Source of the DNA: Prorocentrum cordatum
Lineage: Eukaryota
Direction: 5' to 3'
DNA: 64,000 nt
Assembly: GCA_963575745.1 (NCBI GenBank)
Contig: CAUYUJ010000203.1
Location: forward strand, 62,001-126,000
The stretch's first letter is position 1. Every line of letters begins with the position of its first letter. The notes beneath the pieces were generated by a model. It had not been told where the DNA came from and searched no databases. It worked only from the letters and a program-made list of their open reading frames with translations. Position numbers and translations under genes: made by a program. This document shows positions 10,789-64,000 of the stretch, piece after piece.

Positions 10789-10900
10789 GCCTCCGCTCTC
10801 TGCCGCCCGAGGGCCCGGTCCTTGCCTCCCCGCGCGGCTGCATCCCGCTCCTCCCTCCTCCTCCTCCCTCCTCCTCCTCCCTCCCTCCTCCTAAGACTCG

Positions 10901-10942
10901 TCCGTAGCCATTTTGGCTCAAGTCCGTAGTGTTTCACTCAAG
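10901..10942 (+). other. Spliced leader (10901-10922) plus degenerate second SL TCCGTAGTGTTTCACTCAAG (10923-10942)
   Basis: Exact SL match followed by a 20-nt copy conserving TCCGTAG and CTCAAG. Confidence 0.93.
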
Positions 10943-11101
10943 GACTGAGTATTTTGGCGTGGGGGAGCAGCGGCCCCCGAAGGCTTCCGTACCTCCTCTC
11001 TGCCTGCCCAGGCTGGAGGTACCTCTTACACGTGCTACATCGGGACCGTAAGTTCCCTTCAGCAGTTACCAGTTACATCACTTTGCAGCCTGCGAGGGCG
11101 G

Positions 11102-12190
11102 ATGTCTCAGGGTGATGGACGGGCCCCGAAGACGAGCAGGCACGCCCAGAAACGTCGTGCTGATGCGACGGATTGGGTATGCCGCTGGTGCGTCCACCCT
11201 GTGTCAGGCGCGGCTTGGTGGAACAGATCGGACAAAGTGTCATGTCAGAAATGTGGTGTCGCCAAGGCCTCTTCCTTCCTGGAGCCTCGGTTCAAGCACA
11301 CGGCGCCGTCGCAGAAGCAGCAGCGTGCCGACCGTGTGGCCTCTGCCGAGCCGCCGCCGCCATGGCATGCACGCAAGCTCGCGGAGCTGGAGAAGCAGCT
11401 GGCGGCGGCGCGGCAGCAGCTGGCCACCGGTGGGAAGACAGAGAGCAACGCAATGGAGGTCGACGTGGAGAGCGGTGAGCTGCCGCCGCAGACTACCGCT
11501 CAGATCCGAGTTCGCCTTGACGAGATCGATGAGGCCATGCGGGCTATCAAAGATCTCAAGGACCCCTGCTTCGAGAAGGCCAGAGAGGACTTTGAGGCGG
11601 AGCGTAAGCGGCTGCGGGTGGACTTGGAGGCGTCCAAGCCAGTGCCTGCGCAGCTGCGATCGTTGTCATTCCAGTCGGCTAAGTGGAATTCCAAGAAGGT
11701 CAAACACGAGGGCCTGTTGGCAGCCGCCAAGCAGGAGTTGCAGAAGCTGCAGGAGACCATCCGCGAGCAGGAGCAGTTGGTGGTCGAGGCCGAGCAGGCC
11801 ATCTTGCAGATTGCAGAGGAACAAACTAGGCTGGCGTCTACGGTGCCGAGGCCTCCACCGTCCTCCACTGAGGCGGGCGAGCTTGTGGCCGCCCTTGGCA
11901 TCACGGTCGACACGCTTGGAGGCATCTTGGCAGGACTCGGAGACGACGGTCAATTGCAAGCGAAATTGGACTCGGCCTTGGAAGAGGTGCGGGTACTTGA
12001 GGAACGTAAGCGACAGGGGCGGGCGGTACCCGAGGCAGCACAGCAGGAGAAGACTGAGCCGCAGCGGGGGGCCGCCCCACCTGACGATGCCAGGTCTGAG
12101 CCTGGGGGAGTCGACGTACCAACACCAGACGACACGGACCTGGAGGAGCTGCGAGCTTTTCTGGGGCGCTGGTGTCGCGGTGCAGCCTGA
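11102..12190 (+). pseudogene. Element 1 ORF1: RanBP2-like C4 zinc finger plus coiled coil
   Basis: WVCRWC...WNRSDKVSCQKC, then E/K/Q/L-rich heptads. Apparent frameshift near 12170; the continuation AAIRGSVRKLAE resembles the ORF1 end of element 3. Confidence 0.75.
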
Positions 12191-12899
12191 GGCCGATGAG
12201 GCAGCGATCCGTGGGAGCGTTCGCAAGTTGGCCGAAGGGCTCAATGAATGGTCCAAGGTCCAGGGCCTGAACCGAGAAGCGAGCCAAGGTCCAGGTCCCC
12301 GCCTAGGGAGGGACGGCCTTCGGCACACACACGTTGTTGCTCTGCGCACTTCTCGGCACGTACTCTGTTTGTATGGTTGATGGCTCTGGTTCGAACAGTG
12401 GGTGCCATGACGTCGCTGGGCACGGTAGCAGGGTCGCTTGCTGCGAATCCACTGTTCCAGGAGCCTGGCGGCAGTGGAGCTGCTGATGTGGTGGCCAGGG
12501 CGCGCTGCCTGGGTCGGAGCGGCGGCGGCAGAGCCAAGGGCCGTGGCAAGGGACTGGGAGGACGAGCCGCGGACGCGCGGGTGGCCGACGCCTCGTCCCA
12601 CGTCCGACCTCCTGCTCGAGACGTCGACGGACGTAGCGCCCCGAGCGGGAGGGCTGCCGCGGCCCAGGCGGGTCCGCGGCCGCTTGACTCCAGGCCCCGA
12701 CATGGTGCTGAGCTGGACGGGCCAAGCCATGGCGCTGGAGGCCTAGTGGCCAAAGGCCGTGGCAAGGGGCGAGCTAGGCGAGCCGCGGACGCGCGGGTGG
12801 TCGATGCCTCGCCTCTCGCCCCTGGGCCCACTCGGGCCGTCGACGGACGGAGCGCAGCCCCGAGTGGGGCCTTGGCCACAGAGCAGGCTGGTAGCAAGG

Positions 12900-15800
12900 G
12901 CAGCATCGCGACGTTGAATTGTTCGTCCGGGAAGCAGCTGCTCGAGTACATGGTGCACTGCAGTCACACAGTGGTCGCGGTGCAAGAACACCATGTTGCT
13001 CCTAATGATCTGGCTGATGCGCAGCACCGTTTGCTGGGCGCGGGCTGGCAAGGCATGTGGGCAGCAGCTAACCCCACTGGGCAATGGCGGCACGCAGGCA
13101 GGGCTAGCTGTATTGGCGAGGCCGAACGTCCTGATAACGCGTGGGCCGCGCCTGAACGGGCAGACCGAGCTGGCTGGTGGTCGAGCGTTGCCTGCCCAAG
13201 TCCACTGGGGAGTTCCTGGAGGAGTGGTGCTGGTCTCAGTGTATATGTGCGTCAATGAGGGTTGGTCAGACAATAACCTACACATCATGCAAGAGGTTAG
13301 CAGTTATTTGGAAAAATTGAATCATGCTGGCTACGATTGGATTGTGGCAGGAGATTTCAATATTGAAGCGTCGCAGTTTGGTGATATGCGGTGGCTGCAC
13401 GGGCTTGGCGGTATGCTTCGGGCTCCAGTTGCGACCGCATGTCGACAAGCTATGCCTGGTAGTTGCATCGACTAGTTCCTCACATCGTCTAACTTGGTGA
13501 CACGTGTTGGGCAGCCGTGCGTACAGGAAGCGACTACCACTTTCCCACACTTGCCTGTGTACATGCCTATCAGTGGTAAGGACATCCAGTTGTATCATCG
13601 TGAACTTCGTGGGCCGCGTTCTGTGCCCAAGCAGCCGAGACCAGGATGTTCGAGGTTCCCATTATGTTGGCATGGAGTGGCACGTCTTATAGATGCCGCG
13701 TGTGACGATAGCAGTTTGCAAGTGGCATGGGATGCAGTGTTGAGCCACATCGAACTGGAGCTGCTTGCCAGGCATGACATCGCTGGTGCCAAGGTCGAGC
13801 CGTTCGTCGGAGCATGTGGCCCCGTCGAGTTCGAGAAGGTCAAGCTGCAGTGGCAACCGCAACAGAAACGTTCATACTTGTCGAAAGCAGCCAATGCGTG
13901 GAGTGTCGCGGCCAGGTGGGCACGACATATGCGTGGGGCGAAGGAAGCGATCACCAACGTCACGGCGTTGGTGAGTCACCAGCAAGAGACAGGCACGTTG
14001 GACACACCCCTTTATCACAAGCTGTCGAACTTGATGATTGAGCTTGGCCGTTTCGTGGCGAAGGTGTTGTCCGAGACGGCCGTGCTTAGCGAGCTCGACA
14101 GCTGGGCGTCTGACGTTTTTCTTTCAGGAATGGAGTTCCTTGTCTATCCAGAATTCGATGCAGTGCTAGATGCGATCGAAGCCAAAGCAGCGGAGCTTGC
14201 TGAGGCACGCAGCCAGAAGACCGCCAAAGCCTGGAGGGACTGGGCGGCAGCTAGCTTCATTAATGGTGCGCGTTTCGCGCATAGGCACACGAGGGGGAGG
14301 GCGTTGCAGGAGGTGGTTAATGCAAATGTGACTGCTCGCACGCCGGCCCAGCCGCATCAGTTAGCCGATAAGGCCATGCGGGAGTGGGACAATATCTGGA
14401 CGATGCATGATGTTGCCGCCCCACAGTTGCCAGCAGAAGCGCAGGACTGGGAAGAGCTCCCACCTTTGACTGTGCTAGACGTGCAGCGCGCCATTCTTCA
14501 GTTTCCATGGGCGACGGGAGTCGGCCAGTTTAGCTTCGCACCCCGCAGTCTTATTTTCCTGAGCAATTCAGGCCTGGCGGCCGTTGCCAAGCTATTCATG
14601 AAGTGTGAAAGTCTCTTGATCTGGCCATCTTGTAGACTGCTGACGCAGCCAGTTCGCCTCCCCAAGGCGTCAGGGGGATGCAGATTGATAGCGCTCTTGA
14701 ACACGCTTCTGAGAGTCTGGGGTAGAGCCCGCAGGCCCATGGCGGCCGCCTGGGAGGTCGAGCATGACCTCGAATGTTTCTGGGGGGCGGGAGCTGGTAG
14801 GTCGAGCTCGGACAGCGCGTTTTCTTTGAATCTTGATGCTGAGATAGCGCGCGGGATAGGAGAGGACAGCCTCACAGTCTTTATCGATATGCTGAAATGC
14901 TATGAGACTGTCATTTTGCAGAGCCTGCTTCACGAGGCTAGGCTGAATCAGTTCCCGATGAGATTAGCATGGATGACGATCCAGACATACTTGCAACCTC
15001 GCTGCCTGCGTGCCTTTGCTTCGCTGCCTGTGCCAGTGCATTCCAATCAGGGAATCCTAGCAGGCTGTTCTTTGGCCACTACAATGCTTCGGGTCCTTTT
15101 GCATAGAAGCCTGCAGGATAGCATGACTATATGCCCCACGGTCAAGCCACGATCTCTGATCGATGACGTGAGCTTCCACTGGACTGGTGAACGGGCCAGG
15201 GTGGGAGAGCACGACGGTCAGGCCAGAGACTTGGCCAATGCAGTTCACAGCTTTTGCCTTAGCGTGAGGCCGCTAGGGTTAGTAGTCCAGCCGAGCAAGT
15301 CAGGGTTCGTTGCGAACACGACTCGAGGTCGATATAGATTCGCTCGATTAGTCAAGCTTCTTCGTATGAGAGCGAAGCGAGCGATGCGCAATTTAGGGCA
15401 CGAGATGCACGGCACTAGGGTCTTGCGTGTGCAAGAAAAGACGCGTCTTAAGAATCTCACGGCTCGTAGGCGCAAAGTGTGGGGATTGAAGCACGCCGCG
15501 GGGGAGGCCGTGAAATCTTTGTGGAGGGCGGGGCTCCTCCCAGCTGGCGGCCATGGCGCTGGAGTGTCTGGGATATCCGGCACGGCTATTCGAAAGCTTC
15601 GAACGTTCGCTGGAGGCATGTGCGGGGCCAAGCCCAAGGCGTCGCTCACTCTGTTTTTAGCAACGCAGCGAGACGACAGGTTCGATTCCATTTTTGATGC
15701 GACGGTTCCTCTGGTGGTTAGGTTTGCTTCGTTCATCTGGGACAATAGGGTCGCGCCTGGGCGGCTCCGTAGAGCATGGGATGCGGTCAAGGCCAAGCTC

Positions 15801-17591
15801 GACCATCGCACCTCGTGGACCAGAGCTCGTGGCCCCATCGGCTCTGTTTGGGTCACGCTTCTGCGAGTGGGTTGGACGATGTTTTTCTCCAACAGTGCTT
15901 GTGGACGATCGAGGTCGCCACGTCGATTTAGTGAGGAATTGCCCAGGTGATGTGAAAGCCTTCTTGGAGGAAGGCCTTCGCCGCTGGCAGGTATATAGGA
16001 TCCTTCAGCACCTTCCCAACAGCCTTGGAGAGAGCTGCTGGAGGAGGGGAATGCGGAAAGCAGTTCTTGCAGTGAGAGACGTTGCGAGGCGAGGCGCCTT
16101 GCGAACGCTCTGGTCGTCAGGAGTTTGGACCCCCGAGCGGTTGCACAGCATAGGTCTTCGCAGTTCCCCGCAGTGTTTCGTGTGCAAGCAGGCGATTGGC
16201 AACGAGTCCCATCAATGGTTCGAGTGCGAAGCCATGTTAGAAGGATTGGACGTGACAGTTCCTGATCGTGTCCTCGAGCTTAGGACGGCCATCAAGGCCA
16301 AGCATAATTCGCAGTCTGGAGCGGATCAATTTTATCTCAGCTTCGGTTTGCCGCCTGAGCCGCCAGCGCTGTCGCCCCCGAGCGACGTGTACCCTGTGAT
16401 GGGATGGGGGGACTGGCGTGGGCGATGGGGGCGGAGGGTGTTCGCGGACGGAAGCGGCCAAGCGTCGTCGATCCCAGAGCTGGCCCGCTGCGGCTGGTCA
16501 GTGGTAGAAGTCGACGATGCGGGCAATGTTTTGCGTGCAATTTTTGGCGCGCCCCCAGGAGCGGTACAGACGGTGCCGCGAGCGGAGCACTACGCAGCGC
16601 TCAAGGCAGTAGAAGTTGCGCAGCAGCCAGCGATTGTCGTTTCAGATCACCTGAATCTGGTGCGAGAGGGGTGTGCTTGGTCGGAGGCAGCTGCCTCGTC
16701 TAGTGGCCGTCGCGCTGCGGTGTGGGAAAACATTCGTCGGATCTGTTCGGAGGCTCCTCCTACCTTCGAGTGGGTCCCAGCCCACGGAGATCTCTCGGCG
16801 GTCTTGGAGGCCCCTGATTGCGATTTTGTCCGTTTCGTTGCGCACGAGTGGGCAGACTTCTTCGCCGAGCGTGGGGCTCTGGTGCACTCTACAGGCCAGA
16901 CCATGCAGGACTATTATATGCAAGCCATGAAGGCGGCCAAGGACCATTCCCATGTGTTTGCATGGATGGCCCAAGCAGCCGCCAAAAAGAAGGTGGAGCT
17001 CCAGCCCAGGGAAGTTGTGCCGTCTCAGGTCTGTCGTGTCGTCACCACCCCCCTGGTTGTGCTGGACTCGCATGAACTTCGATATTGCGAGAGCCTGTCA
17101 GAAAACAGGTGCCTGAATTGTAACAGGTTCGCGAGGACTCCCGACTCCTTAAGGCCCTTCGAGCGAGGCGATGCGAGCCCACGGATCTCCTGCGAGCGAT
17201 GGCGACGCGTTATTTCGCCCTCACCCCCGAGCGCTATCGGCACGCCTCGCTTGCGGCGGACGCCGCCGTGCGCGCTGCAGGCCTTGATGAAGGCCCAGGG
17301 CCCCCTGGAGGCCCGCCTGCGGGAGGGGGAGTGGGGGCTAACGTCGTCGCCGTCGGGGTCGATCGGGAGGTGGAATTGTATTCGGAACTTGGCCACGGTG
17401 TGGAGCGTTTCGGTTCCACGGTCATCTGCCTCTGCTGTGGGGCTTTCAGTGTGGCTGGAGGCCGCATCCGCAAGCTGCGTGCCCAGTGCAAGGGGCACTC
17501 GGACGTAGCTTCCACGCGTGCGAACGAGGAGATGCAGATCTCCCGTGCGTTGCGCGGGCTGCACCCCCGATCGGGGGACCCTTGCCCATGA
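12900..17591 (+). pseudogene. Element 1 ORF2: EEP/APE endonuclease, RT, RNase H, C-terminal Cys-rich region (disrupted)
   Basis: EEP: IATLN, VAVQEHH, WIVAGDFN, CID*F. RT: LPKASGGCRLIAL, FIDMLKCYE, GILAGC, LIDD, MRNLG. CFVC..ESHQWFEC. RNase H: VFADGS, RAEHYA, VVSDH, WVPAH, ADFFA. C-terminus CLCCG...LRGLHP. Confidence 0.9.
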
Positions 17592-18219
17592 TGCCCTCGA
17601 CGCCAGGTCTCCTCCGTCGGCCTTCCGACGCGGCGGGGACGGCGCTGTCGAGGACTAGCGGCACGGTGCGATGGCTCGTGGCCTCGCCGTGTTGCTTCCA
17701 ACTTCCTTCCCGCTGAAGCGGGTCCGCACGCTCGGACTCGCTCTTCATCGCTCGCTGCCTCCTCCTAAGACTCCTTCCTCCTCCTCCTCCTCCCCCCTCC
17801 TCCTCCTCCTCCTCCTCCTCCTTCTCCTTCTTTTCCTCCATCTCAGACCTCCTTCCTCCTCCCTCCCTCCTCCTCCCTCCTCCTCCTCCTAAGACTCCTT
17901 CCTCCTCCCTCCCTCCCTCCCTCCCTCCCTCCCCTCCCTCCCTCCCTCCCTCTCTCCCCCCCTCCTCCCCCAGAGACGAACCGAAAGCAAACTGCCAGAA
18001 ACATATGGACACACACACACAGACACCGATATAAATGCACACGCACACACATCCCAGGATTCCGTTCTATATCCCCCCATTTGTTCTTGACGTTCGTCTT
18101 CCCCCCAGTCCCCATCATGATTCCCAGGCCTTCCCCGGGAATCGACGATCATTTGTGACTGCGTCCTTTCCTCTTCCCTCCGAATTTGCGTTGAAGAAAA
18201 TACAAGGAAAATAAACGTT

Positions 18220-42085: not shown

Positions 42086-44140
42086 CAGTTTCTAGACGGT
42101 CAAATATTAATTGCACCACCTAGACTGCACCACGTCGATTGCATCATAGATGACACTGCGTACAGTACAAGAACTCACTGTTCGGGGACCACGCTGGTTC
42201 ACATGTTCATAGAATTCTTGACGCTTCGCGTATCCCCACCAGCCCATCCTACACCAGGCACTCGAACGAAGAGCGCCGATGATCGGCAGCTGTTCTTCTC
42301 CCCCTCTTCCTCCTTCTCCTCCGCCTTCTTCCTCCTCCTCCTCTCCTCCTCCCTCTCCTCCTCCTCTTCCTCCATCACGAGTAAGATTCGAATTGGAAGC
42401 CAAGGTAACCCCAAAATGGCTCCAAGATGGCCCCAAGATGGCCCCAAGATGGCCCAACATGGCCCAAAAATGGCCCAATGGCCCCAGGATGGCCCTAGCT
42501 GGCCCCAACATGGCTCCTTAGGGGAAGCTTGGAGGTGGAACATGCTCTTACTCTTGACTTTGGAAAACCATTGACTTTACACCATTCTGAAAAGTCAAGA
42601 GTAAGAGCCGAATTGGAAGCCAAGGTAACCCCAACATGGCTCCAAGATGGCCCAAGATGGCCCCAAGATGGCCCCAAAGGCTCAAAGATAGCCCAACATG
42701 GGCGTCTGGGGTCCTTTTAGACGCCATCGGGGCGCTCTGGGGGGGCATCTTGGAGCAAATGTATCAAAGAAGAGCAGAGCTTTAATTAGCGTTGCCCCTC
42801 CAGACTGTCTAAAATCGCTTCCTGGACCCCTCTTGGATCGCTCTTGGAGCGCTCTTGGACGCTGTTGAGGCAGTCTTGAGGCTCTCTTGGGCCCCTGTTG
42901 GGGCCCAGTTGGGACATCTTGGCGCCATCTTGAGGCCTCGGATGGGCTTCGGAAGCGAAAAAGTGAGAACACCAAAAACATTGATTTTCCCTAGGGTTTT
43001 GAAGCATTTCTGCCTTTTGAGGGCACTCTAATGATGCTCTTGTGGGCACTTGGAACCATCTTGGAGCGGTCTTGGAGCGTGTTGGAGCGTCTTCTGAACC
43101 ATCTTCAGGCATCTTGCGCTATCTTGAGCCATTTTGGAGGCGATCTTGGGCTCTCTGAGGCCCTCTTGGAGCCGTCCTGGGCCATCTTGGACGCTCTGAC
43201 CGCTCCCCGCCCCTCCTGTCCAGGTCAGTGGGGAGGCGGTAGGAGGAGGGGTAAACCCCTCCCCGAAGGGGAAGAGGGAGGGGTGGAAGAGGAAACGCCC
43301 TAAACCACCGACGCCCAGAGGGCTGGTGGGATTCTATATTGTTTCTAAAAGGTGGTACAGGACGTATGGGGGAAGAGCAGGGAGGAGGAGGAGGAGGAGG
43401 AGAAGGGAGGGAGAGGAGGACGAGGGAGAGGAAGGCAGGGAAGAAGGTAGAGGCCGCAAACAACGGCTGCCTTGAACTTCCCAAAGCCTTTCCTGCCATT
43501 CGAAGACACTCTCAATCTACAGCCTCCTCTCCCTGGGAGGAGAATGGTGAGGAAGGAGGCTGGATGACGATGAGGGTAAGGAGGACGCAGAGGAGGAGAG
43601 AGGAACGATGAGGGAGGACGGAGTGGTTCAAGTACTGGAGAGGGGACCGCTCGCTCCATGGACTTCGCGCCCCACTGATCCCGATGAGGGTAGGTCCATT
43701 CTCGCACCGCTGGACCAGCTCTGGCGATGGCTGCGCTGCGCTGCGCTCGCATGTGTCGCAGGTGGCGTGTGCTTCTCCCGCTCCCCCTTGGACTACGTAA
43801 GTCGGGCCCGTCCCTCTCCAGGAGGAGTTCTCAAGCATAGTAACAACATGTCCTGTGGACGACTGTTGATGATTCTTTGTTGTGATGTTTGAGCATCTTT
43901 GGGTTATGTTTTGCTTGTCGTTAGAAATCTGCCTGTAGGGGTGCCGACGCCTGTGAGGCTGTGTGAACGCGAACCTCCCGATGGATGAAAGAATGAGGCA
44001 GAGGCACTTGTTTTGAGCCTGAAGATTTGGCTGAACTCTCCGCGTCGCGGCCGCCGTTTCGCGAGTTTTGTGATCCCGTATTGGACACGCCCTTTTTTTT
44101 CTCCTGCAAACTCACTCAAGCAATCCTCGCGGCCATGCTT

Positions 44141-44141
<1 letters not shown>

Positions 44142-44210
<69 letters not shown>
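44142..44210. repeat. Poly(T) tract followed by (AT)n
   Basis: Direct inspection. Confidence 0.9.
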
Positions 44211-44216
<6 letters not shown>

Positions 44217-44482
44217 AAAAAATGTACTGGACACGCCCGACCTGACCACGCCCTCGACGGCCGCGGCCCCCGCAGCGAACCCCCCCGGGGGACCCGCGCC
44301 CCCCCCCGTGCCCCCTGCTCGCGGGCCTCCCCGGGAGCGGGGCGCGCCCCCGCCCGCGGCGGCGCCCTGCCCCGGCTCACGCGTGGGCGAGCGCGTGCGC
44401 CCAGCCATGGGCATGGAGGCGGAGGAGGAGGAGGAGGATGGAGGAGGAGGATGGAGGCGGAGGAGGAGGATGGAGGAGGATG

Positions 44483-44523
44483 TCCGTAGCCATTTTGGCT
44501 CAAGTCCGTAGCGGTTGCTCAAG
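44483..44523 (+). other. Spliced leader (44483-44504) plus degenerate second SL TCCGTAGCGGTTGCTCAAG (44505-44523)
   Basis: Exact SL match followed by a 19-nt copy conserving TCCGTAGC and GCTCAAG. Confidence 0.93.
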
Positions 44524-44646
44524 GATTTGAGATCTGGCAGGGGGGATCGCGCGGCCCCCGACAGCTTTCCCTTGCGTTCGCCCGCCAGGCATCTTCCACA
44601 TCACGTTCAGGCTATCGAAGCGCCACTTTCACTGCCCACATCCTCG

Positions 44647-45963
44647 ATGGCTCCTTCTTCGTCTCGCTTCACTTATAACCCGTGGGCGCAAGCATCTGAG
44701 GGTGATGACGGGGAAGGGGAGTGGCAGGTCAAAGGCGGTGGCAAGTGGTACAACAAATTCAAGTCGCCCATCAAGTGCCCAGGTTGTGGGTGTCGTAAGA
44801 ACGCTCCCTCGGCGAAGTGGTGCAAAAACTGTCATGGTCCTCTCCCTCAGGTTCCAACTACTCCTGGTCGCTCTGGCCCTCTTGCTCTGTCCTACTGGTC
44901 GAGACCGCCTGGGTGGTTCGGCGCTGCCTCTGGGAATAAAGGAGGGCCTGGTGGTAAAGGCGTCGGCAAAGGCAAAGGCAAGGGTTTCAATGATGCGTTT
45001 CGGTTCGAGTGGCATGGTTCAACCCCAGGAGGCCAGCTGCAGCCCGCAGGGATGGGAGGGGGTGCCCCGCCGCTCCCCGCTGGACTTGTTCCTGCGCTGT
45101 CCGTCGATGAAGCTAAGCAGATGGCCTCCCTGTCGTACAAGGCGGGGGATGCTACGAGGGCTACGAGGGGCAAGTACTATACCGACGTGGCGGCCAGCCT
45201 GGAGGCCGCCAGCAAGCCTACGGAGATCAATGTCCACCAGCAGGTTCAACAGCAGCATGCCGCAGTCCGTCGCCTGGAGAAGCAGCTCGAGGGACAGCTC
45301 ACTCGCTTGCTCAAGTGGAAGCAGGAGACTGCAGAGCTGGAGGAGCAGGTTCGCCAGTCGCGGGACCAGCTCGGCAAGGCCGATGAGGAGTACAAAGCGG
45401 CGGTCGAACGGCTTCGTGACAGCAGTGGCGCAGGCGCGACAGGCGCTGGAGAGACCTCGGCTCCGCGCAGCACTCCAGCCATCCCGCTGCGGGACATCAT
45501 GGAGGGCAAGTTCGATCTCACGAGCATTATCAAGTTTGACATTATGGAGGAGTTCGAGAGCAGCGAGTACGATGTCACGATGGAGATCGCAAGGAGTACC
45601 AGACTCGGCTGGAGAAGTTGCAGTCTGGCGTGCAGGACCTGTCCAAGTCATTGTTCGAGCAGCTCACCTCTACGGCCGCGGAGGTCAAGGCAGCCCATCT
45701 GGCTCACAAGGCACGGCTTCAGCGCAAGCGACGTAAAGGTGACGATGGCGAAGGACTTCCTGTTCAGGACGATGACGATGCAGGTCGCGGTGCCGCGGCA
45801 GGTGGAGGAGAGGCTGCTGCGCCTTCTGAGCCAGGCGCCGCGTCTCAGCCTGCTGCGAGGCCTGCCGCTGCTGCTGCAGCCGCTGACATTCGAGCTCGGG
45901 TTGACCAACATTTGTCAGGTGTTCCCCCCCCCTCGCTTGAGGGGGGGCGGCCTAGTGGTGTAA
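44647..45963 (+). pseudogene. Element 2 ORF1: C4 zinc finger, GKGKGKG motif, coiled coil (frameshift near 45590)
   Basis: CPGCGCRKNAPSAKWCKNC; GKGVGKGKGKG; heptad region RRLEKQLEGQLTRLLKWKQETAELEEQVRQ. 3' end approximate. Confidence 0.72.
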
Positions 45964-46389
45964 ATTGTGGCACTCCGAGCTCGGGTGACTTGTCCTCTTT
46001 TTTTCAACTTTTTGGCAGGCCGAGTCTCTTCTGTTGGCTCTCAGTACAGAAGTCAGGCTTGCGCTTGGCGCGCAAGCTACACTCGATGTCCCAGGGCGTC
46101 TCCGAGTTTTTTCCTGCTCCAATTTTTCCTTGGGACCCTCATCCTGTGCCCCCAGGTGACCGTGAAATCCCTGATCCTCGTCCCTCTTCTCCCTGGTCTG
46201 GCAGATCAGACGTTGAGCGATGGTCCCGCAGCCATGGTGTCGCGCGCTTGCCGCCATCCGATCTTTTTTGCTGGAGCAAGTACGGTCAGGGCCTCCAGTC
46301 GGGGAGGGGCTATGGACTGGTCAGCCCCCGCCCCTGCGCCTCCAGCGACGTCTGGTCCAGCCAGGCCACAGAGTTGCGGGCTCGACGAA

Positions 46390-49300
46390 GGCCTGCCGGT
46401 GTCCACCGTGAACGCCAACTGCTGGGGCACACTGAAAAAAACTACCTTACGAGCAGTGTATCGCATATCGTTATCGCGCAGGAGCATCGCCTACGAGGTG
46501 ACGACGATATTGCAACGGCCGCGAAAGGGACCAAGTTTTTGGGTTGGGAGTCGCTCTGGGCTCCTGGTATAGTTGGCGAGGGCGGGGACACCTCCTCTGG
46601 GGTCGGCGTCATTGTGCGTGACGCGCTCGGCATGTTCGAGCACCAGGACGAGATCGTGCTGGCCGAGGGCCGCGCGATAGCAGCCATGGTGCACGTGCCA
46701 GGGTGCGCCACCTTCTGCGTCTTCTCCCTCTACCTCCGCCACAGCGAAGGTCTGTCAGAGGCCAACTTGTCTATCTTAAAATCAGTGGGGGGAATTTACC
46801 GGGGGTTTAGAATGCGATTTCATCATTGGGGCTGACTGGAATTTCCCCCCCGAGGCTTTGGCTGCGTCTGGCTTCCATGCTAAGGCTAATGGGGTGATTG
46901 TCAGTTCCTAAGGGCACGCTCACTTCCCCAGGGTCGGCACCCCCGAACGTTTTGATTTGTTCGTTGTGTCGCGCGCCCTCTCCCTCGGTCTCAAGCAGAT
47001 CGATGTGCAGGGGGACTCGCCCATCCACCCTCATAGACCTGTGTCTCTGCGTTTCCACGCGTCTGTTGGTGATCTCAAGGCTCTCGCCTTCCGACGCCCG
47101 CATGACCTTCCTGTGGGGCCACCGGTTGGCCCGCAGCCTGAGCCTGGGTCGTGGGAGGTCCCCCTTGGGCTGGCGCGCGAGGCTTTTCGGGCGGTGCAAG
47201 AGGGCGAAGGTGATCGTGCTCGTGCTATGCTGGCCCCTGGATACCGTGCGTGGGCCAACTCGGCCGAGCGGGACCTCAGCGCCATCATGGGGGTGATGGT
47301 TCCTAGGGGGGCCAGGGGTAAGCGGCCGCAGATGCATTGGAAGAGCATTCCGGAAGAAGGGGGCCGTGAGCCTAATCCTACCCTCAGGTCGGTGCTTTGG
47401 TTGAGCAGCCAACTTCGTGCTCCCAGGTGCTACTTAAGCTCTGAGGGCCTTCTAGATGGAGGTCGTCAGGTGCTGGCGGCGCTCGCGGAGCCGCCGACGA
47501 CGGTGGCGGTGGCAGAGAACTCAGACTATGCGCCTCTTTTTCGCACTGCCGCTGGCTTAGCGCGTAGTCTGCTGCGCTCGGTGGACGATCCCGAGGTGGC
47601 CGCCGACCTCGATCGGCACATCTGCGAAGTTTCTGAAGCTTGTGTCACTGCTAAGGCATCCGCGGCCAAGTCCTCTCGGATGGCATGGTGCGAATGGGTG
47701 CGTCAAGGGCTCGAGAAAGGGACGCGTAATGCGCAGAGGGCTATTCGGGACCCTGTGGCCTGGGCTCCCACCACAACTCTCTGTCGCTCAGGCATTGCGG
47801 TGTCAGATCCCATGAGCTTGCTCAAGGCTGAATCGGCCAAGTTTATTTCTATCTGGGGGGAAGGTGCTGGCCAGGGTCTTTGCGGTAAGGAATTGTTGTC
47901 ATGCCCCCCCCCCTTCTCGAGCCCGACATCATCAGGGCCATGTCCAAGAAATATCGGCCTGCCTCTGCTGTCAGCTTGGACGGCTTCCACTGCCGTCATT
48001 TCAGCCTGCTCCCTGACGAGGCTCTGATGGCTCTTTTTCTGTGGTTCTCGGTCATGGAGGCCACGGGGTCCTTGCCTGTCCAGCTCTCTTGGGTGCTGGT
48101 CGCCTTGTTGGCCAAGCCCTGCGGGGGCTTCCGGCCCATCGGGATTTTTCCGAGCTGGTACCGTGTCTGGGGCAGGTGCCGTCGTTTCGAAGCTCTTCGT
48201 TGGGAAATCCAGCACAGCCGCCATTACTGGGCGGCGGGGGCTCACCGTGGTGCGGGGGGCGTGGTCTGGAGGCAGGCTTTCAGAGCGGAGTCGGGGACGG
48301 TCAGAGGTCAGGTCAGCGCGTCTATGTTTTGGGATTTGCGTAAGTACTACGATCACATAGACCTCGGCTTTCTTTGGGCCACGTGTAAGCATCATCAGTT
48401 TCCTTTGGAAATCGCGCGCCTCGCGATTCACGCCTACTCCTGCGCGAGGTTCATGACCCTGGGGGGAAGTGTCGACGGCCCCTTCTATGCCCTGAGAGGG
48501 ATCGTCGCGGGTTGCACCTTCGCGACGAGCCTTATTCGGGCGTTTGCCTTAGAGGCTTTCGACTCCATCCCGAGGGGACCTGATTTTGACGTTTATGTTG
48601 ACGATTTGAGCCTCAGCGCGACAGGCAAGCCCAGCTGTGTTTCGAAGCTTCTTGTTTCAGGCGCTAGAGCTCTGCACTCTGCGATCACGACGAATATCAA
48701 GTGCAAGCTGGCTATGGACAAAGTTGGCATGGTCTCCAGCAGCAAGCACATTTCTGCTGCGCTCTCGGCTGAGCTCGGGGACTTAGTTGGCGATCCAGCT
48801 TGCACTCGGGTGACCAACTTAGGTGTGGATTTCACGGCTGGCAGAGCGGTCAGAGCTCCTGGAAAGAATCGGAGTTCCAAGGCTAAGCAGAGGGCGGCAG
48901 CGGCCCTCAGGAAAGCTCGCCGTCTCGGGAGATTGGGCCCCACTCTGGGGCGCAAGGTGGTTAACATCTTCACCTCTGGACCCTTAGCTGGGACTGTGTA
49001 TGGTTCGGACTTGCATGGGGTCTCTGACCGTGAGCTGCTGTCGCTTCGACGATTGGCCATGTCTTGCGTTAAACCCTCTGTCCAGGGTAGGTCCCTTGCC
49101 GTTTTGTGTCTTTTAGAAAGGACCCCACGTGGAGGGCCAGCTGCGCCCCTATCATCCGCTGGGCCAAGGAGGTGTGGATCCGTCAGGCGAGGGCCTTTGA
49201 GTGGGCCCTGAGCTGGGCCGAGCTTCGGACTGGGTGGAGTTCGGTTTTTCAAAAAAGACGACTGGACCTGGGCCAAAGTTTCGGGACCTATCTCAGGGCT

Positions 49301-50913
49301 TCGAATGTCGCTGTACAGGCTTGGGTGGACCATGCCCAATTTTACTACCCTCGTGGACGATTTTGGTCACGAGATATCTCTCACCTTGTCGCCGCCCAAA
49401 CTGGTGAAGCTTTTTTGTTGCAAGGCGGCTGTATTTCGGAGCCTTGAGCGGGATTCCGGGGACAAGTTTCAGGCTGGTGCCCGTCTCTGTTGGGACGTCC
49501 CACAGAGACTTCTTGCGTCCAAGAAAATCCATGGGGTTCAGAAGGGTATGATCCGTGCTCTGGCCACCAATGCCTGCTGGACTGCAGGCGATGCAGCCGA
49601 CTTAGGCTACCCCATCTCCAGTTTGTGCCCGCTGGGCTGCGGCGCCAAGGACACCCTGTTTCACCGCCTCTGGGCGTGCCCGTGCGCGCAGGCCGAGCGG
49701 GACGAGTGCATGCCGAAGTGGATCCAGGAAGCGGCGCTTGAAGTGCCTGAGAGCGACCCCGAGAGAAAAGCTATGTGGCTTCATGGTGCGTTCAGACATC
49801 CTGGGGACTGGGCTCCGAAGCCGGCTATCTCGCCCGACGGCGTCACTGTCGACTGGCATGTTGACCCGCTCCCTGATCCTGCCAGGCCAGGCTCGCCCCC
49901 CTCCATTGTTCCCAGGGGCGGCGTCTGGGGGCACCTTTTCATGGATGGGTCCTGCTCTAGGCACCAGGTTAGGGAGTTGTCTAGGGCGGGGTGGTCTGTT
50001 GTTATGGTCTCGGAGTCGGGGGAGAAGCTTGGGGTCATAAAAGGTCCCCTCTGGGCTCCGTGGCCTCAGACCCCCCAGGGAGCCGCATTTGGCGCCCTAG
50101 CCTGGACTGCGTTGTGCACGGAGGTCCCTGCTCAGTGTTAGTCAGATTGTGCTAATGTGGTGATGTTGCAGAATCTTGGCGGAGCCGAGGCGTCTGGCCC
50201 AGCCCGTCAGTACGCTGGCTTCGTCATGCAAGCTCGCCACCATTTTGGCCGCTTTTGCGAGGGCATCCACAAAGTGGCTGCCCACAAAGATCTGGAGGAG
50301 GAGGGTTCGTCGGCGGAAGGGGCGCTTTCGGAGGTTGGGTAATGCGTATGCCGACGTCGAGACGAAGGAAGGTGCGACGCGGCATCCGACTATGACGCCA
50401 ACGGAGGCCGATGCTTTAAGTCGTACTTTAAAGATTGCTAGGGCTGTGTTGCTGGGCGGAGCAGCGTTGCCCCCGCTTTGGCCCAAAGTCGAGTTCCGTG
50501 GCTTGGAGCGAGTCCAGCCGCCGAAGCCACCACGCCCTCCTCGGCTTGTGCTGGAGCACGATTGGGACCGCCAAGGTAGCTTTTGGAGGTGCCGCGTGTG
50601 TTTGCGAGGCTCCAGAGCGTCATCCCTGCCGAACAGCGGGTCGGAATGTGCGGGCCGCAGCAGGCTCGACAGGTGCGTTCTGGAGCGTCTCGGGCATCGC
50701 GTGGTAGCGTTCCCTTGCACTGATAATGCTAACCTGTTCCTTTGCATGTCGTGCAAGTTTTATAGCAGTGGTGGAGTTGTGTTAGGCCTGGGGCGTAAGT
50801 GCGCCCCACCTGCGGAGTCTGGCGTGAAGAACATGCGTAAGCTCCGTAGAGGCCTGCATCCTGATAAGAAGGGTGTTTACGTCGACATCGACGAATTCAT
50901 CCCGCTGTTATAA
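46390..50913 (+). pseudogene. Element 2 ORF2: EEP/APE endonuclease, RT, RNase H, Cys-rich C-terminus (disrupted)
   Basis: STVNAN, AQEHRL, GADWN. RT: LAKPCGGFRPIG, FWDLRKYYD, GIVAGC, VYVDD, NLGVD. CPLGC..HRLWAC. RNase H: LFMDGS, HKVAAH, GNAYAD. CRVC, CMSC, RRGLHP. Stop at 50139 and several frameshifts. Confidence 0.9.
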
Positions 50914-51624
50914 GGTACAGGTTCAGTGCCGCACCAGTTGCGCCTCTGGGCTGGTCGTGCAGACACTGTTCTCATAACAGAGGCCGCGGCGTTGCTGCTC
51001 AAAAAAAAAGGAGGAGGATGGAGGAGGAGGAGGAGGCGGAGGAGGAGGGGGCGGAGGAGGAGGAGGATGGAGGAGGAGGAGGAGGCGGAGGAGGAGGAGG
51101 AGGAGGAGGAGGATGGAGGAGGAGATGGCAAGCTAGGCGGAAGAGGAGGAGGAGGATGAGGAGGAGGAGGAGGAGGAGGCAAACTAGGTGCGCTGGCGTC
51201 ATATCTGGCGTCCTTCCCCTCCCTCCCATCCCTTACCATGTTGCAGACCTCCTCCCTATTCGCACAGTCGGAGGTCGAGGCAGGGCAATGATCCCGACAG
51301 GGTGCGCGATGCATCGTAGAGCACGGCATAGCAGGGCGTAGAAGAGCACGGCAGAACGTAGTATGTCATAGCATGGCGCGGCGGTGCGCAGTGAAGAATT
51401 GCATCACAAAGCATTGCAACGCACATATTGGCATCGCACAGCGGCACAGAACAGAGCATGGCATAGCATGGCGTTGAATATCAAAGCGTAGCATGGCATA
51501 GCATGGCGTGGCAATGCGTAGTCAAGCATTGCATATCCTAGCATTGCAGCTGAAGGCATGGCACCGCATAGCAGAACACCACATAACGTTGCATTGCATG
51601 CCGTGGCATGGCACTGGAAATAAT

Positions 51625-51810: not shown

Positions 51811-52448
51811 TTTTGAAACACACAACCCAAACGAGAACCCAACTCCGGGGAATCCTGTGTGAAATGCGAAGGGGGGCCAAGCCTCTTACGTACGTAATCA
51901 GAGGAGAGAGGAGAGTAGTATCCATATTGTGCAATGGTGGAGTGGGGGGTGAAGAAGGAGAAAGAGAAGGAGGAACAGAGGAGGAAGAGGAGGAAAAGGA
52001 GGAGGAGGAGACGGAAACGGAGGAGGAGGAAGTGGAGGAGGAGGTGGAGGAGGAGGAGGAGGTGGAGGAGTTGGAGTAGGAGGAGGAAGGAGGAGCAGAG
52101 GAGGAGGAGGAGGAGAGGAGGAGGAGGAGGAGGAGAGGAGGAGGAGGAGGAGGAGGAGGAGGGGGGAGGAGGACGCCTCATTCCAGCGTCCTTTGCCATG
52201 CTGCGGCCATCCTTCCGCCGCCAGAGGCGGCGAGGCCAGCCCATAGTCTGGAGGCCCTGGTCCAGACGCCTGGGATGCAGGCTTTCCTATCACGCATTCA
52301 GGCTAGAGAGGCAGCCCAGCGCAACGCTTCTGCTGTTAAAGCAAACCCTCTTTGTATGTCCGCCATGCTGGGTGGAGGCTGTAGCTGTTGTGGTGGAGTG
52401 GGGTGATTCCGCTGCCATAGTTCGACCCTGGGGTGACTCCGCTGCCAT

Positions 52449-52479
<31 letters not shown>

Positions 52480-53933
52480 AACAAAACGAGTAGGAGGGGG
52501 AGGAGGAGGACAGGGTGGAGGAGGACGAGGAGGACGAGGAGGAGGAGGAGGAGGAGGACGACGACGACGACGAGGAAGGGCGCGCGGGGAGACTGGCCAG
52601 CACGGGCGCCACAGGCGGCCCGCCTGCAGGCCTGGGCCTTCCCTCGGGGCGCCTCTCCGCCCAGCGCGGGCCCACGGGGGGTGGCCCCCGCACCCGCCCT
52701 GCGCACTCGGCTCCGGCCCGCCGCAGCACCCCGAGGTGGAGGGTTTCTCCGAATGGCTTAGGTGACCCGTCCTCCTCCGCCTCCTCCTCCTCCGCCTCCT
52801 CCTCCTCCTCCTCATCACCATCCTCCTTCTCCTCCCCCTCCCTCCTCCTCCTCGTCCTCCTCCTCCTCCTCCTTCTCCTCCTCCTCCTCGTCCTCCTCCA
52901 CCTCCTCCTCCTCCTCCTCTCCTCCTCCTCCTCCTCCTCCTCCTCTCCTCCCCCTCCCCCTCCTCCCCTCTCCCTCCCCTCCCCCTCCCCCTCCACCTCC
53001 TCCTCCTCCTTCTCCTCGGGTCGCCTACGGTCCGGGTGGGCAGCACCCCGAGGGTCACTCTTTGCTCGTTGGCGATCGGGCAGGCGCAGGTTCGAGTAGT
53101 GGCAACGCGCCGTGGCCCTACAAGCCCACCGAAGACTGTTCGAATAACCTTTGTGGACTGCGCGTGATGTGTAATGTGCTTGGAACGTTTCTGACTGAGA
53201 CTCGTGTTTGGACGCATCGGGTTGATGCTATAATAACATTGTTTTCGTTCTTAGAACACGTTCGGGTTCTAGGATATCTCGTGGTAGGCCCATAGGAGTG
53301 CCGAGACGGTCGGTCCCTGCTCACACCGAGTGCCCGTCCTGCGCGTTGGCGATCGGGCAGACGCAGGTGGAGCACCCCCCCCCCCGACGGACGGAGCGTC
53401 GCGGAATGAAGCGAGGCACAGACACACCAACTCGGTGGTCCGCGCGGATGTCTTGGATCGGGGCCGGGCACCCCTCACTGGCGCGAGGAACGCGCGAGGG
53501 GCGGCGCTGGAGGCGCCTTCAGGGGGGTCAGAAACAGACCCTTCGTCTCTTGCTGTGCGATGCTGATGCCAGCACGATGGCTGCATGTTTGCGTCATCGT
53601 CCGGTTCTCCAGAGCGGCCGACAGTGCGAGCGGGCGCAGATTGGCCAAGCGGCGCCGCCCCCGGGGAGAACCGGGGGCCGGCCGTCCGGGCAGGGGGGGC
53701 GAAGACGCCGCCGCCACCGCCGCCGCCGCCGCCGACGCCGCCGCCGACGACGACGATAACGACGTCACCGACGACGGGCACGACGACGGCGAGCACGAGC
53801 ACGACCACGAGAGCGGAGGCGTCGTCGACGTCGGCGGAGACGTCGACGACGACGGCGGCGGCGGCAGCGCCTGCAGCGGTGCCCGCGGCGCCCGCGGCGG
53901 CGCTGGCGGCGGGCCCCCCTCCCGCCCGCGGAG

Positions 53934-60560: not shown

Positions 60561-63500
60561 GCGACAGATGTGTGCAGTCAAGACGCTGAAGCCAGGGCCA
60601 CCTCTGTCTGTCAGAGCGTGAATTACCTACCCCGGTTTCGCTTCCAGGCAAAACCAAGCCATACCACGCGCCCCCTCGTCAAGCGGCGAGAGCAGTACAG
60701 GCTGCAGTTTGGCATCGCTTGGTATCTCTTGGAAGCGAGGGTGGTCAAAAGCGAGGTAGGTTTGTTTTCCCCCGAAAGACGCTGAAGCCAGGGCCACCTC
60801 TGTCTGAGGAGGGGCTCAAGTTTTCTGGCGCTGCCAGCGAGGCCACGGGTGGCGGCAGCGGCACCAGGGACGTCCACGGCGAGGGCGCCTCCGTCGAACC
60901 GAGCGGCCAGGGCAAGTTGCACGAGGAGCTGGAGGCCCTGGGCGGCATGGTCTCAGTTATGGCCGCGTCTGCTAAGTCCAAAGAGATCGGCCCGACCACG
61001 CAGCACGTCGACCGCATACGCACCACGCTCCACGGCGACCCGCAGCACGTCGACCGCCGACCAGGTCGGCCCGACAACGCACCACGCTCCACGGATACCC
61101 GCAGCACGTCGACCGCACCGCGCAGATCCGCGCGGAGCTGGCCGCTGCTCGCCCTCTCCTCGTCCAAGGCGCATGGCTGCGTCGATGAAGTCACAGCTGT
61201 GGGCAAGGCCATCGATCAATGGGAGGCCGGCTTCGCAGCAGAGCAAGCAGATAGCGTTGCGAGGCAGGCTCGGGCTGCCGAGATCCAGGAGCTGATCAAT
61301 GCTAAGCAGGCCGCGGAGCTGGAGCTGGAGCTGGAGCGCCAACGCTCGGAGCTGCTGCAGAGTCGCGTGCCGGCCGAGGAGACCGAGAGCTCCGCCGGCA
61401 CGGCGCTCGAAGGTTTCGCCGCGCACCTGGCCAAGCTCCAGTCGGTCATGCCACAGTTGGGCGCAGGCCAGGAGCTGTTCGAGCTATGCGCGCAGCACGC
61501 GGTGCCCTTCGTCGAGCGCACGCGCAAGGCGCGCGCGGACAAAACCGCCGAGGCGCAGGCGCAAGGAGCAGCGCCCGCCCCGGCGCCATCTGCTCCTGCT
61601 GATGACGGCGGGCACTGCGCTGTATCTGATCTTGACATGGATGATATGGACATGGAGGGGGTCAAGGCTTTCATGGCTGACTGCGAAGTGGAGGTTCCCC
61701 AGGAGGAGCCAGAGATCCGAACTCGGGCCAAGCGCCTCGCCAAGACGTTCTAGGACTTCGCCCCGAGAGCCAAGAAGAAGGCGAAGCCCAGCGACCAGGC
61801 ATGAGCTGAGCCTGGTGGGCCCTTTCGCTCTCTGTCCCCATGACGGGACCGCCATCGCTGCATGCCGCTCGGAGCCCCTGGGCGCCGTGGGGCGCGGGCA
61901 CACGCGGTCTGGGAGTGGCCTGAAGATGGCATGTTCTGTTCTTCGGGTTTTGTCCCGCACGCTTCATGCTGATGACTGGGGTGCGCTCTGTGCGTGGCGC
62001 CTCCGCAGGCGCGTGGGCTCACGGAGGCCTCGGCGCGCCGCCTGCTGCGGCGGCCTCGGTGGCGCGCCGCTCGTGCCCCCCGCCTCGCCAGACGCCATCG
62101 GGGAGGTCGCCCTGCCCTCGTCTGACGGTTGGCCAGTGCGACAGCGGCGGCGACTTGCTCGGAAACGCGGGAGCGGGCCGGGGCGAGCGGCGGCGCGACG
62201 CGATGGAGGGTCGCCTGCTGGCGGCACCGACGGGGCCACCGCCCCCATCCAAGGGTTCATCGCAACGGTGAACGACACTTCCCACAGCTGCCTTCTCGAC
62301 TATCTGCCTGGAGCGGTGGCCACGGTGCTGCTCGCGCAGGAGCACCACCTGCTGGCTGACAGGATCCCGCGGGCCCAAGCCAGGGCTCGCGACATGGGCC
62401 GGCATGGCCACTGGGCCCTTGCCCTCCCCAGCGACACGACCGAGAGCGGCACGGTCGCGGGCGTGGCGATCCTGGTGCGCGCGGACACCATGATCACGGC
62501 GCCCGAGCTCGACGAGGCGAACCTGCGCCTGGTCGGCCCCTTTGCACACGCGCGCTGGGGCGTGCCAGGAGGCTTCGTGGCGGGCAGCCTCTACTTGGAC
62601 AAGGGCGGTATGGGCCCCGGCAACTCGGCGCACGTCTGGAACATGGTCAAGACGGTTTGCCGCCTCAACGCCTTCGGCCATGATTGGGTGATCGGAGGTG
62701 ATTGGGACAGCGAGCCCTCGGCCGCCCTCGCCTATCCTTGGGCGCAGTCCGCGGCCGCTGCTGCCTTTGTGCTTGCGCTGCCGACTTGCAAGCAATCTGC
62801 TCCAGGCACCATCATCGACTACTTCGTTGCGTCGGCCAACTTGTCGGCTCGGTTACACCATCACGTGGAGGTGGACGAGGGCGCCGACCTTTACCCGCAA
62901 CGCCCCGTCTTGCTGCAGGTGATGGTACAAGACACGCCGACGTGGAGACTGGTACCCGACGTGCCGAAGCCACTGCCTCGGCAGGTGCCCGTTGGTTGCG
63001 CGCTTCCCCGTGGACTGGGGCCCGCGGCCGATCGAGTGCGCTGGCGACTCGAGCGAGCTGGCGCACGCCTGGGACTACGCGGTGCAAGGCGTCGAGCGGG
63101 AGCCAACCAATCGCTGCGACTTCATCGGGCCAAGCGCCCTTGTCAACTCTGGCCGGGTAGGGGGGCCGCAGTTTGCGCGGCGGCAAGCCCGCTGGAAGCC
63201 CTCCTGCAAGCGAGCGGCCAAGAGGCCTGCCACCCTGGCTTGGAGGACGGCTGTTCGGTCGCTCGCCCGCAGTAGGCGCGAACGGCGCAGGCTGCGAGAC
63301 TTGGTGACCACGTCGCAGCTGGCCTTCATCACGGCGGCTTTCTCGCCTGAGCAGCGCACGGTGCTCCTCGCGGCCTTCTCCGACGTGCTGAGGTCTCTTG
63401 CCGGCGCACTGCGCGGCCGCATGGTCCTTGCCAGCCCCCCGATGCAGTTGGATTCCTTCCTTCAGTCCGGCCTGGGCGCGCTGGTCGCGCCGACCTTCGA

Positions 63501-64000
63501 CGGCCTGTGCGAGTCGGCGCAGGAGGAGTCCCTGCTCCGCGCCATGCTCGACCAGCAGGCGAGCCGACGCGCCTGGGGTGTGGCCTCCGCTGCACGCAAG
63601 GCTTCCAAGGCGCCCTCTGTCGACGAGGTGGTCTCTTGGCTACGGTTGCGCGACAGGGCCCAGCCCTGCGCGTTGATCGACGGGGACTTGGCCTCGTGGA
63701 GAGGGATCGGGTCGCACCATGCCTGCGTCGAGCTGGAGCGACCCGCCGAGTCGGACGAATGGCCCGCACTCCCCCCCACCCCAGGACTCGAGGTGCTGGC
63801 GGTCATCCTGTCCCTACCAGGGGCCACTTCCACGGGGCCGACTGAACTCCACCCGCGTTCCCCGCGGCGCCTTCCGGACCAGGCGCTCGGGGCGATGGCG
63901 AGGTTATCCGTGCAATGCGAGTCGGTCTTGGACTGGCCGAGGGACCACCTCTGGGCAATGATGCGCCGCGTCCCGAAGCCCGAGTCAGGCCACCGCCTCG
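60561..64000 (+). mobile_element. Third non-LTR retrotransposon related to element 1 (5' end disrupted, runs off the window)
   Basis: Coiled-coil ORF1 remnant to ~61805. EEP motifs IATVN, LLAQEHH, WVIGGDW, TCKQSAPGTIIDYF, similar to element 1 TACRQAMPGSCID. RT start CESVLDWP...VPKPESGHRL at the window end. Left boundary uncertain. Confidence 0.85.
60611..60775. mobile_element. 165-bp family C copy in element 3, with 31-bp duplication
   Basis: AAGACGCTGAAGCCAGGGCCACCTCTGTCTG at 60580-60610 and 60776-60806. Confidence 0.82.

Follow-up and report, generated by a model that had tools for sequence, protein, structure and literature searches.

The question raised by this locus is how a retrotransposon of a dinoflagellate came to begin with the spliced leader (SL) of its host. 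The locus lies in a stretch of 64,000 nucleotides of Prorocentrum cordatum (GenBank assembly GCA_963575745.1, contig CAUYUJ010000203.1, positions 62,001 to 126,000 of the forward strand), which is called the window below and to which all positions refer. Element 2 is a single copy of a non-long-terminal-repeat (non-LTR) retrotransposon, that is, of a long interspersed nuclear element (LINE); it occupies 6,528 bases of the plus strand (44483–51010), and its first 22 bases are the exact dinoflagellate spliced leader (DinoSL). Based on the analyses reported here, it was concluded that element 2 is probably a decayed copy of an APE-type LINE, the RNA of which was trans-spliced with the host leader and copied at full length into a (GGA)n microsatellite. 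The window holds a second such LINE, element 1 (10901–17756, plus strand).

Dinoflagellate genomes are described as full of genes copied back from SL-bearing mRNAs, with the source of the enzyme and the rules of the process given as unknown in the relevant passages of PMC5585692 and PMC12014239. For the machinery of this mRNA retroposition, LINE families with a leader of their own offer concrete candidates. Their always-perfect outer leader also makes it testable how a retrotransposon sets its 5′ end and becomes expressed in a genome that has few promoters and trans-splices all of its mRNAs.

The Leader at the 5′ Limit of Element 2

The leader TCCGTAGCCATTTTGGCTCAAG at 44483–44504, hereafter SL0, was identical to DinoSL as printed in PMC7245778, in the passage that gives the sequence. 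A previous inspection of the bare letters of the window, the sequence-only reading, had placed a leader at 44483, and the exact 22-mer was recovered there. When up to 3 mismatches were allowed, the DinoSL 21-mer matched the window three times, each time exactly (6806–6826 on the minus strand, 10902 and 44484), and it was not found in any of 100 shuffles of the window sequence. The window is GC-rich, at 55–70% when measured in 2-kb windows.

The limits of element 2 are known to the base because the insert splits one (GGA)n tract. A purine tract of the (GGA)n type, approximately 70 nt long (44413–44482), ran directly up to SL0, and the same type of tract resumed at 51010 and continued to 51184. 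The final bases of the insert were A9 (51001–51009), the end of a 3′ untranslated region (UTR) at 50914–51009. An 11-nt sequence, GGAGGAGGATG, was present on both flanks (44472–44482 and 51010–51020) and was taken as a candidate target-site duplication (TSD). No terminal repeats were detected in element 2, and its blastn comparison with the window returned, apart from the self-match, only the 85-nt head of element 1. The Rfam scan of 44300–51200 gave no match. A T37/(TA)n tract at 44136–44215 was considered as the tail of another retrocopy, and this was unsupported.

Coding Content and Decay

The first open reading frame (ORF1; 44647–45960) started with an ATG at 44647 and carried a Cys4 zinc-finger-like motif, a G/K-rich stretch and a coiled coil. 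ORF2 comprised an endonuclease of the EEP/APE type (46437–47358), read in two frames (46437–46793 and from 46816 onwards), a reverse transcriptase (RT) at 47901–49208 with the motifs FWDLRKYYD (48327) and YVDD (48594), and a zinc-binding and RNase H region with the C-terminal part (49269–50910), in which the frame shifted between 50300 and 50335. In the Pfam search of element 2 itself only RVT_1 was found (frame 47889–49208, E 7.3e-6), at 26.3 bits and under the cut-off of 29.6. The endonuclease and RNase H had no direct Pfam match in element 2, and both were demonstrated through relatives. By tblastn, the endonuclease region aligned to residues 35–345 of the protein P0004, the Exo_endo_phos (EEP) domain of which scored above the Pfam cut-off, and the RVT_1, zf-RVT and RNase_H domains of P0004 scored below it. 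The region was also 65.6% identical to the endonuclease of a metagenome locus, L017, which passed the cut-off (25.8 vs 24.5 bits).

Nine protein relatives of ORF2 were found in the databases, and they aligned to 46437–50910 in frames 3/1/3/1. The best named relative was P0008, an unnamed product of Prorocentrum cordatum, with at most 92% identity over short stretches. A family profile (A2) was built from ten sequences, including seven of the nine database relatives and one RT-bearing frame each of elements 1 and 2. Against solved structures it matched the RT of human LINE-1 ORF2p best (E 4e-12), followed by a retroviral RNase H (3e-8) and exonuclease III (1e-6). An RT of the YxDD type, an EEP/APE endonuclease N-terminal to it and the lack of long terminal repeats place element 2 among the APE-type LINEs.

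The domains that the sequence-only reading had assigned to ORF1 and to an EEP–RT–RNase H ORF2 were therefore present, partly by way of relatives, but the frames were not intact. The disruptions comprised two stops and at least four changes of frame: the in-frame stops of ORF2 were located at 49209–49211 and 50139–50141, its frame changes at approximately 46800, 47890 and 50320, and that of ORF1 near 45577.

Other copies of the family were read from the contigs of the public DNA run X1, of which 702 were mapped; four runs were used, each in the form of contigs, and the mapping left out the flanking repeats (44404–44484 and 50993–51200). From the identity class of 99% and more down to that below 90%, the contigs numbered 130, 213, 228 and 131. 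The copies differed from element 2 by insertions or deletions exactly at 45577/8, 46040, 46183, 47913, 49119–49122, 49245 and 50317, including one extra base at 45577/45578, and the frame breaks of element 2 at 45577/8, 47913, 49245 and 50317 were absent from them. Because the copies differ exactly at the breaks, the breaks are peculiar to element 2; the family has many copies, which are of mixed age. The family was active for a long period. The loose ends listed numbered 17, a thin sample beside 110 others, and none of those listed for X1 departed "before" a place in 44505–44900.

Near the end of ORF1 a perfect 9-bp C/G hairpin was found (45926–45947). In L017 its counterpart, a 15-bp stem (1400–1433), stands at the same place, approximately 16 nt before the ORF1 stop. 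No ATG that would open the ORF2 frame lies near this hairpin of a C-run and a G-run, which may be a signal for the translation of ORF2.

A Head Common to Divergent LINE Lineages

SL0 of element 2 is followed by a second leader, SL1 (TCCGTAGCGGTTGCTCAAG, 44505–44523). It is a full-length relic that opens with a complete TCCGTAG but has diverged and is three bases shorter than the leader. Behind it lies a conserved, GC-rich leader region with a G-run/GCGGCCCC box (44524–44566), recognized in the alignment of heads. This region possibly holds a third, older relic; the test for such a relic reached significance in element 1 alone (P 0.01), and L017 gave a marginal result. The canonical truncated relic, which results from a join at the internal AG, was not present in element 2 and was seen only in the transcript-like L017. 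Neither an SL-RNA intron nor a foreign mRNA body was detected after the leader in element 2, which showed the 22-nt exon only, with an exact join.

Element 1 carried a homologous head composed of SL0, a relic (TCCGTAGTGTTTCACTCAAG) and the leader region. It was bounded by a 16-nt TSD, CCTCCTCCTAAGACTC (10885–10900 and 17757–17772), which includes non-repeat sequence and encloses the leader. The leader was part of the inserted copy and not of the target. One extra G was observed between this TSD and the leader, and the two metagenome loci L019 and L021 likewise had a G, as part of an AG, before the leader. Capped L1 RNA is known to carry an additional 5′ G.

The bodies of the two elements were only distantly related. 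The RT motifs of element 1 were FIDMLKCYE (14880) and LIDD (15156), and its RT shared approximately 30% identity with that of element 2 over 105 amino acids (tblastx). In blastn only bases 1–85 matched, at 80.7%, and the coding DNA was not alignable. The motifs had been read correctly from the letters for both elements, and their assignment to separate families is upheld.

A search of metagenome contigs for the leader followed by DCCGTAG yielded 13 loci, two of which, L017 and L019, showed homology to LINEs by tblastn. L017 was 55.6% identical to element 2 over 162 amino acids of ORF1, and their coding DNA was 65–69% identical. L019 showed the start of the endonuclease only. L021 shared its head with L019 and stood in another flank; its contig ended before the position of the endonuclease. 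All five heads could be aligned to approximately column 82, and the head of approximately 80 nt, consisting of the leader, the full-length relic and the GC-rich box, was thus common to four LINE lineages (element 2, element 1, L017 and L019/L021), with ORF1 at a similar distance behind it in each. The expectation that SL heads would recur in other lineages was borne out.

Conservation fell steeply along the head. SL0 matched the leader at 22 of 22 positions in all four genomic heads. Similarity between lineages was 60–84% in SL1, which is also the range of identity of the element 2 relic to those of element 1, L017 and L019; it was 40–67% in columns 43–82 and 27–40%, the level of noise, in the following 100 nt. 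Derived states of SL1, such as G for the ninth base C of the leader and a shortened T-run, were present in all four lineages together with the GC box, which does not derive from the SL. Because of these shared derived states and the non-SL box, the similarity of the heads exceeds what independent descent from one leader would give. The sequence-only reading had called the family of element 2 independent, a term that is not supported for the heads; otherwise its interpretation was correct in substance and is partly supported.

The pattern suggests that the SL head was not an accident of the element 2 copy and is a 5′ module of at least four LINE lineages. The head would be a heritable module that is older than the split of the LINE families or held by selection, and SL0 would be either renewed or strongly selected. 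What appears to be new is the relic leader and GC-rich box behind the leader of element 2, homologous across lineages; SL-tagged retroposition as such is of a known kind.

Two small hairpins were present in the consensus of the head RNA, in which 2 of 17 pairs were compensatory, with only 4 sequences compared, and the single-sequence z-scores were −0.56, −2.38, −2.32 and −0.37. A sequence model of the head detected no further heads in the window. In metagenome contigs, 457 pattern matches were obtained for close ORF1 relatives, and none was confirmed by tblastn. A 28-base pattern had no match in contigs of prokaryote genomes. A 17-base SL/relic pattern gave 8 matches in viral contigs; the full leader was present in none of the 8, and the matches were attributed to chance.

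Proposed Renewal of the Leader

The 5′ start of L017 consists of TCAAG, CCATTTTGGCTCAAG and the relic, and it therefore has the form expected of an mRNA that was trans-spliced at an AG inside the DNA-encoded SL0. In 7 of the 13 metagenome loci a start inside the leader stack was found at the end of the contig, and one of these loci ended in 14 A; for both reasons the seven are very likely assemblies of transcripts. Since the new leader of the L017 relative was spliced inside SL0, its transcription began upstream of the head.

SL0 was perfect in the DNA, the relic had diverged and no extra layers were found between them, which suggests that SL0 is replaced in each productive cycle. If every cycle added one layer, young layers would be stacked beside SL0; the layer located there is old in every lineage, and hence productive cycles would regenerate exactly SL0 and SL1. 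Two routes could lead to this result, namely (i) trans-splicing at the AG that terminates SL0, or (ii) a start of transcription at the first base of SL0 combined with selection. With the first route the perfect SL0 would follow at no further cost. It was favoured over the second because the L017-type relative was transcribed from upstream and trans-spliced within the head.

We proposed that the pre-mRNA of the LINE would start upstream of the element, by read-through, and that the host leader would be joined by trans-splicing at the AG ending the DNA-encoded SL0, so that a fresh leader would replace the old one. Target-primed reverse transcription would then place a full-length copy of the leader-bearing RNA in a (GGA)n microsatellite. 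The result would be a head of three layers: fresh SL0, the old full-length relic SL1 and the conserved GC-rich leader. The anatomy of the insert, the homology of its head with the others, the gradient of conservation and the re-splicing inside SL0 in one transcript-like relative were shown; we infer the acceptor of productive cycles, the read-through transcription and a cis-preference. SL1 itself possibly originated by trans-splicing at a pyrimidine-tract AG before SL0; in the flank of L019/L021 such a tract ends in AG directly before SL0, so trans-splicing there would yield a full-length second leader. SL-headed LINE families seem to spread routinely as host-spliced RNA.

Several observations weigh against this account. 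The sequence-only reading had listed A9 and the flanking repeat, and both were found, but the repeat was no better than chance: of the 5824 junction pairs that can be placed in the tracts on either side, 1148 (19.7%) had an exact repeat of at least 11 nt, which makes the candidate TSD uninformative. The A9 run is short and may have been templated, and no A tail was found in element 1; the leader is consistent with the claim of a reverse-transcribed mature mRNA, to which the tail adds weak evidence. In L017 the join is at the internal AG. A join there would add a relic of 15 nt, which none of the 4 genomic heads contained; the border AG is accordingly an inferred acceptor for productive cycles. 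The perfect SL0 could equally be explained by selection on an encoded leader. Some frame breaks are located in homopolymer runs (such as C10, 47903–47912) and could be assembly errors, and not every break can be taken with certainty as the mark of a dead copy.

An internal promoter was the strongest rival, and it was judged unlikely. Transcription would then start at the first base of SL0, which selection would preserve for translation or as a TTTT promoter-like motif. A conserved head of approximately 80 nt in divergent LINE families resembles Pr77 of trypanosomatids as described in passages of PMC1874656 and PMC8190864, and the TTTT motif of DinoSL has been proposed as a promoter of retrogenes in parts of PMC5585692 and PMC9651163. 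Against this, the new leader inside SL0 of L017 requires a pre-mRNA that began upstream of the head, and selection would need to keep each of the 22 positions unchanged as the neighbouring relic drifted to 60–84%.

It was considered very improbable that element 2 is a chimeric retrocopy, in which RT, at the 5′ end of a LINE RNA that had no leader, switched to an SL-bearing RNA and the leader was an add-on of the copy or lineage. LINE enzymes are known to switch templates, as in U6-L1 chimeras, and tandem full-length leaders are unlike the canonical truncated relic; both points favour such a switch. However, a switch would be expected to carry over part of the SL-RNA intron or of a foreign mRNA, and neither is present; it also does not sit well with an exact join that involves the 22-nt exon only, or with the recurrence of this head in four lineages, where ORF1 lies a similar distance behind it. 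Site-specific insertion beside a pre-existing leader, in an SL gene or an older retrocopy, would make the leader target DNA and could draw on the three SL copies within one 64-kb window, but it is contradicted by the (GGA)n/(TCC)n flanks on both sides with no SL genes, by the missing SL intron, by the TSD of element 1 outside the leader and by the co-inheritance of the head with the LINE body.

Trans-splicing of the LINE RNA with the host leader was thus retained as the preferred explanation. A wider scheme, possible but held with considerable doubt, is that a clade of dinoflagellate LINEs uses the encoded leader and its follower as a portable, self-renewing 5′ module with its own trans-splice acceptor and perhaps a promoter of the TTTT type. 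Read-through transcripts would be cut by it to full-length capped mRNA with no classical internal promoter, and these LINE enzymes, directed at (GGA)n/(TCC)n tracts, would be the engine of dinoflagellate "mRNA recycling".

Comparison with Known Systems

SLACS, CZAR and NeSL-1 are LINEs inserted in SL RNA genes, with the leader as target DNA. They resemble element 2 in that a LINE is physically joined to a spliced-leader sequence, but the target of element 2 was a (GGA)n microsatellite and not an SL gene, and its leader is located inside the insert.

The closest process is SL-tagged retroposition, in which, according to passages of Song et al. 2017 (PMC5585692), a DNA-encoded DinoSL stands at the 5′ end, relics are stacked and re-splicing takes place at the internal AG, as in L017. 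In element 2 the encoded DinoSL was likewise found at the 5′ limit of the insert, directly after the microsatellite. Compared with what those passages describe, the tagged RNA is here that of the retrotransposon itself, and the inner relic of element 2 is full length, old, common to LINE families and followed by a conserved non-SL box. The same source reports an enrichment of the Gene Ontology (GO) term "RNA-dependent DNA replication" among SL-tagged genes, and heads of LINEs are not described in its passages on the subject.

SymbioLINE-Dnmt and other LINEs of Symbiodiniaceae (de Mendoza et al. 2018, PMC5890265) share with element 2, in the parts of that paper concerned, an ORF2 with EEP, RT and RNase H; they also have TSDs, for which element 2 has a candidate. 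SymbioLINEs are described there as having conserved 5′ and 3′ UTRs and, like element 1, no poly(A) tails. In contrast to SymbioLINE-Dnmt, ORF1 of element 2 contains no DNMT. The spliced leader is not mentioned in the main text of PMC5890265 as accessible, nor in 3 of its supplementary files. The full-text literature search returned no statement that dinoflagellate LINEs begin with DinoSL; subscription journals and supplements may hold more.

Pr77 of the trypanosomatid L1Tc/ingi elements is a short 5′ signature (77 nt) common to divergent LINEs and their derivatives in a trans-splicing lineage, as outlined in passages of PMC1874656 and PMC8190864. A short signature across divergent families was also found here, in four lineages and up to approximately column 82. 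The same passages present Pr77 as an internal promoter giving unspliced transcripts, whereas the present head is built of spliced leaders and was re-spliced in one relative. Trypanosomatid LINEs have met the problem of 5′-end definition and expression with a promoter head that gives unspliced RNA, and this contrast widens the interest of the comparison.

With human LINE-1 (ORF2p structures 8uw3, 8sxt, 9k6g and others) element 2 shares an APE endonuclease and RT and a coiled-coil ORF1; its short A9 end and candidate TSD may correspond to the A tail and the TSD logic of LINE-1. It differs by the RNase H domain of its family and the zinc-finger-like N-terminus of ORF1, and in that its 5′ end would be set by a trans-spliced leader and not by a long, promoter-bearing 5′ UTR.

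Target Sites and Other Inserts in the Window

Purine/pyrimidine tracts of the (GGA)n/(TCC)n type numbered 52 in the window and covered 5.2% of its length (for example 4249–4469, 17769–17973, 51939–52176 and 52766–53019). All three SL-headed inserts of the window adjoined such a tract, for which the chance from the tract share alone was approximately 1.4e-4 by our own arithmetic. The target was (GGA)n for element 2 and (TCC)n for element 1, and the nicked strand differs between them because their orientation to the repeat differs. L019 and L021 were two separate insertions, both directly after (TCC)n...CCAG, and in another metagenome locus, L016, an SL-SL head followed directly after (AGT)n. 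The bias towards tracts may reflect an endonuclease preference, DNA structure or chromatin.

The third SL-headed insert was a non-LINE sequence of approximately 2.4 kb on the minus strand (6826 to approximately 4470), with an exact leader (6806–6827) directly after (GGA)n. It ended before a 221-nt (GGA)n tract and had no A tail. Its long frame was of low complexity and rich in repeats, with neither a Pfam match nor homology to LINEs. The insert looks like a retro-copied cellular or non-coding RNA in a LINE-type target. A non-LINE retrocopy with the same type of 5′ junction in the same type of microsatellite fits with the idea that the LINEs are the candidate machinery. Beyond elements 1 and 2 the window held 71 stop-to-stop frames with a length of at least 220 amino acids. 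None had a meaningful Pfam match at E 0.001, and two gave weak, low-complexity ones; Pfam left the remainder of the window without annotation.

A third LINE copy (60813–64000) runs off the end of the window, with endonuclease homology from 62229 and RT homology at 63730–63996 (tblastn). Its ORF1-like frame begins right after GGCTCAAG, the final 8 bases of the leader, and GAGGAGG stands before it. A truncated leader ahead of this LINE is possible; GGCTCAAG occurred 8 times in the window vs 4 expected, and three other occurrences were in an unrelated repeat. Immediately upstream of this LINE, approximately 166 nt are bracketed by a direct repeat of 31 nt, AAGACGCTGAAGCCAGGGCCACCTCTGTCTG (60580–60610 and 60777–60807), which may mark a small insertion bearing a long TSD or else a duplication of local sequence.

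A dispersed repeat was also observed at 21350, 24618 and 43123 (minus strand). It is made of CCAAGA(T/C)GGCTCAAGA units with a periodic, coding-like look, and it accounts for most of the non-leader matches of GGCTCAAG.

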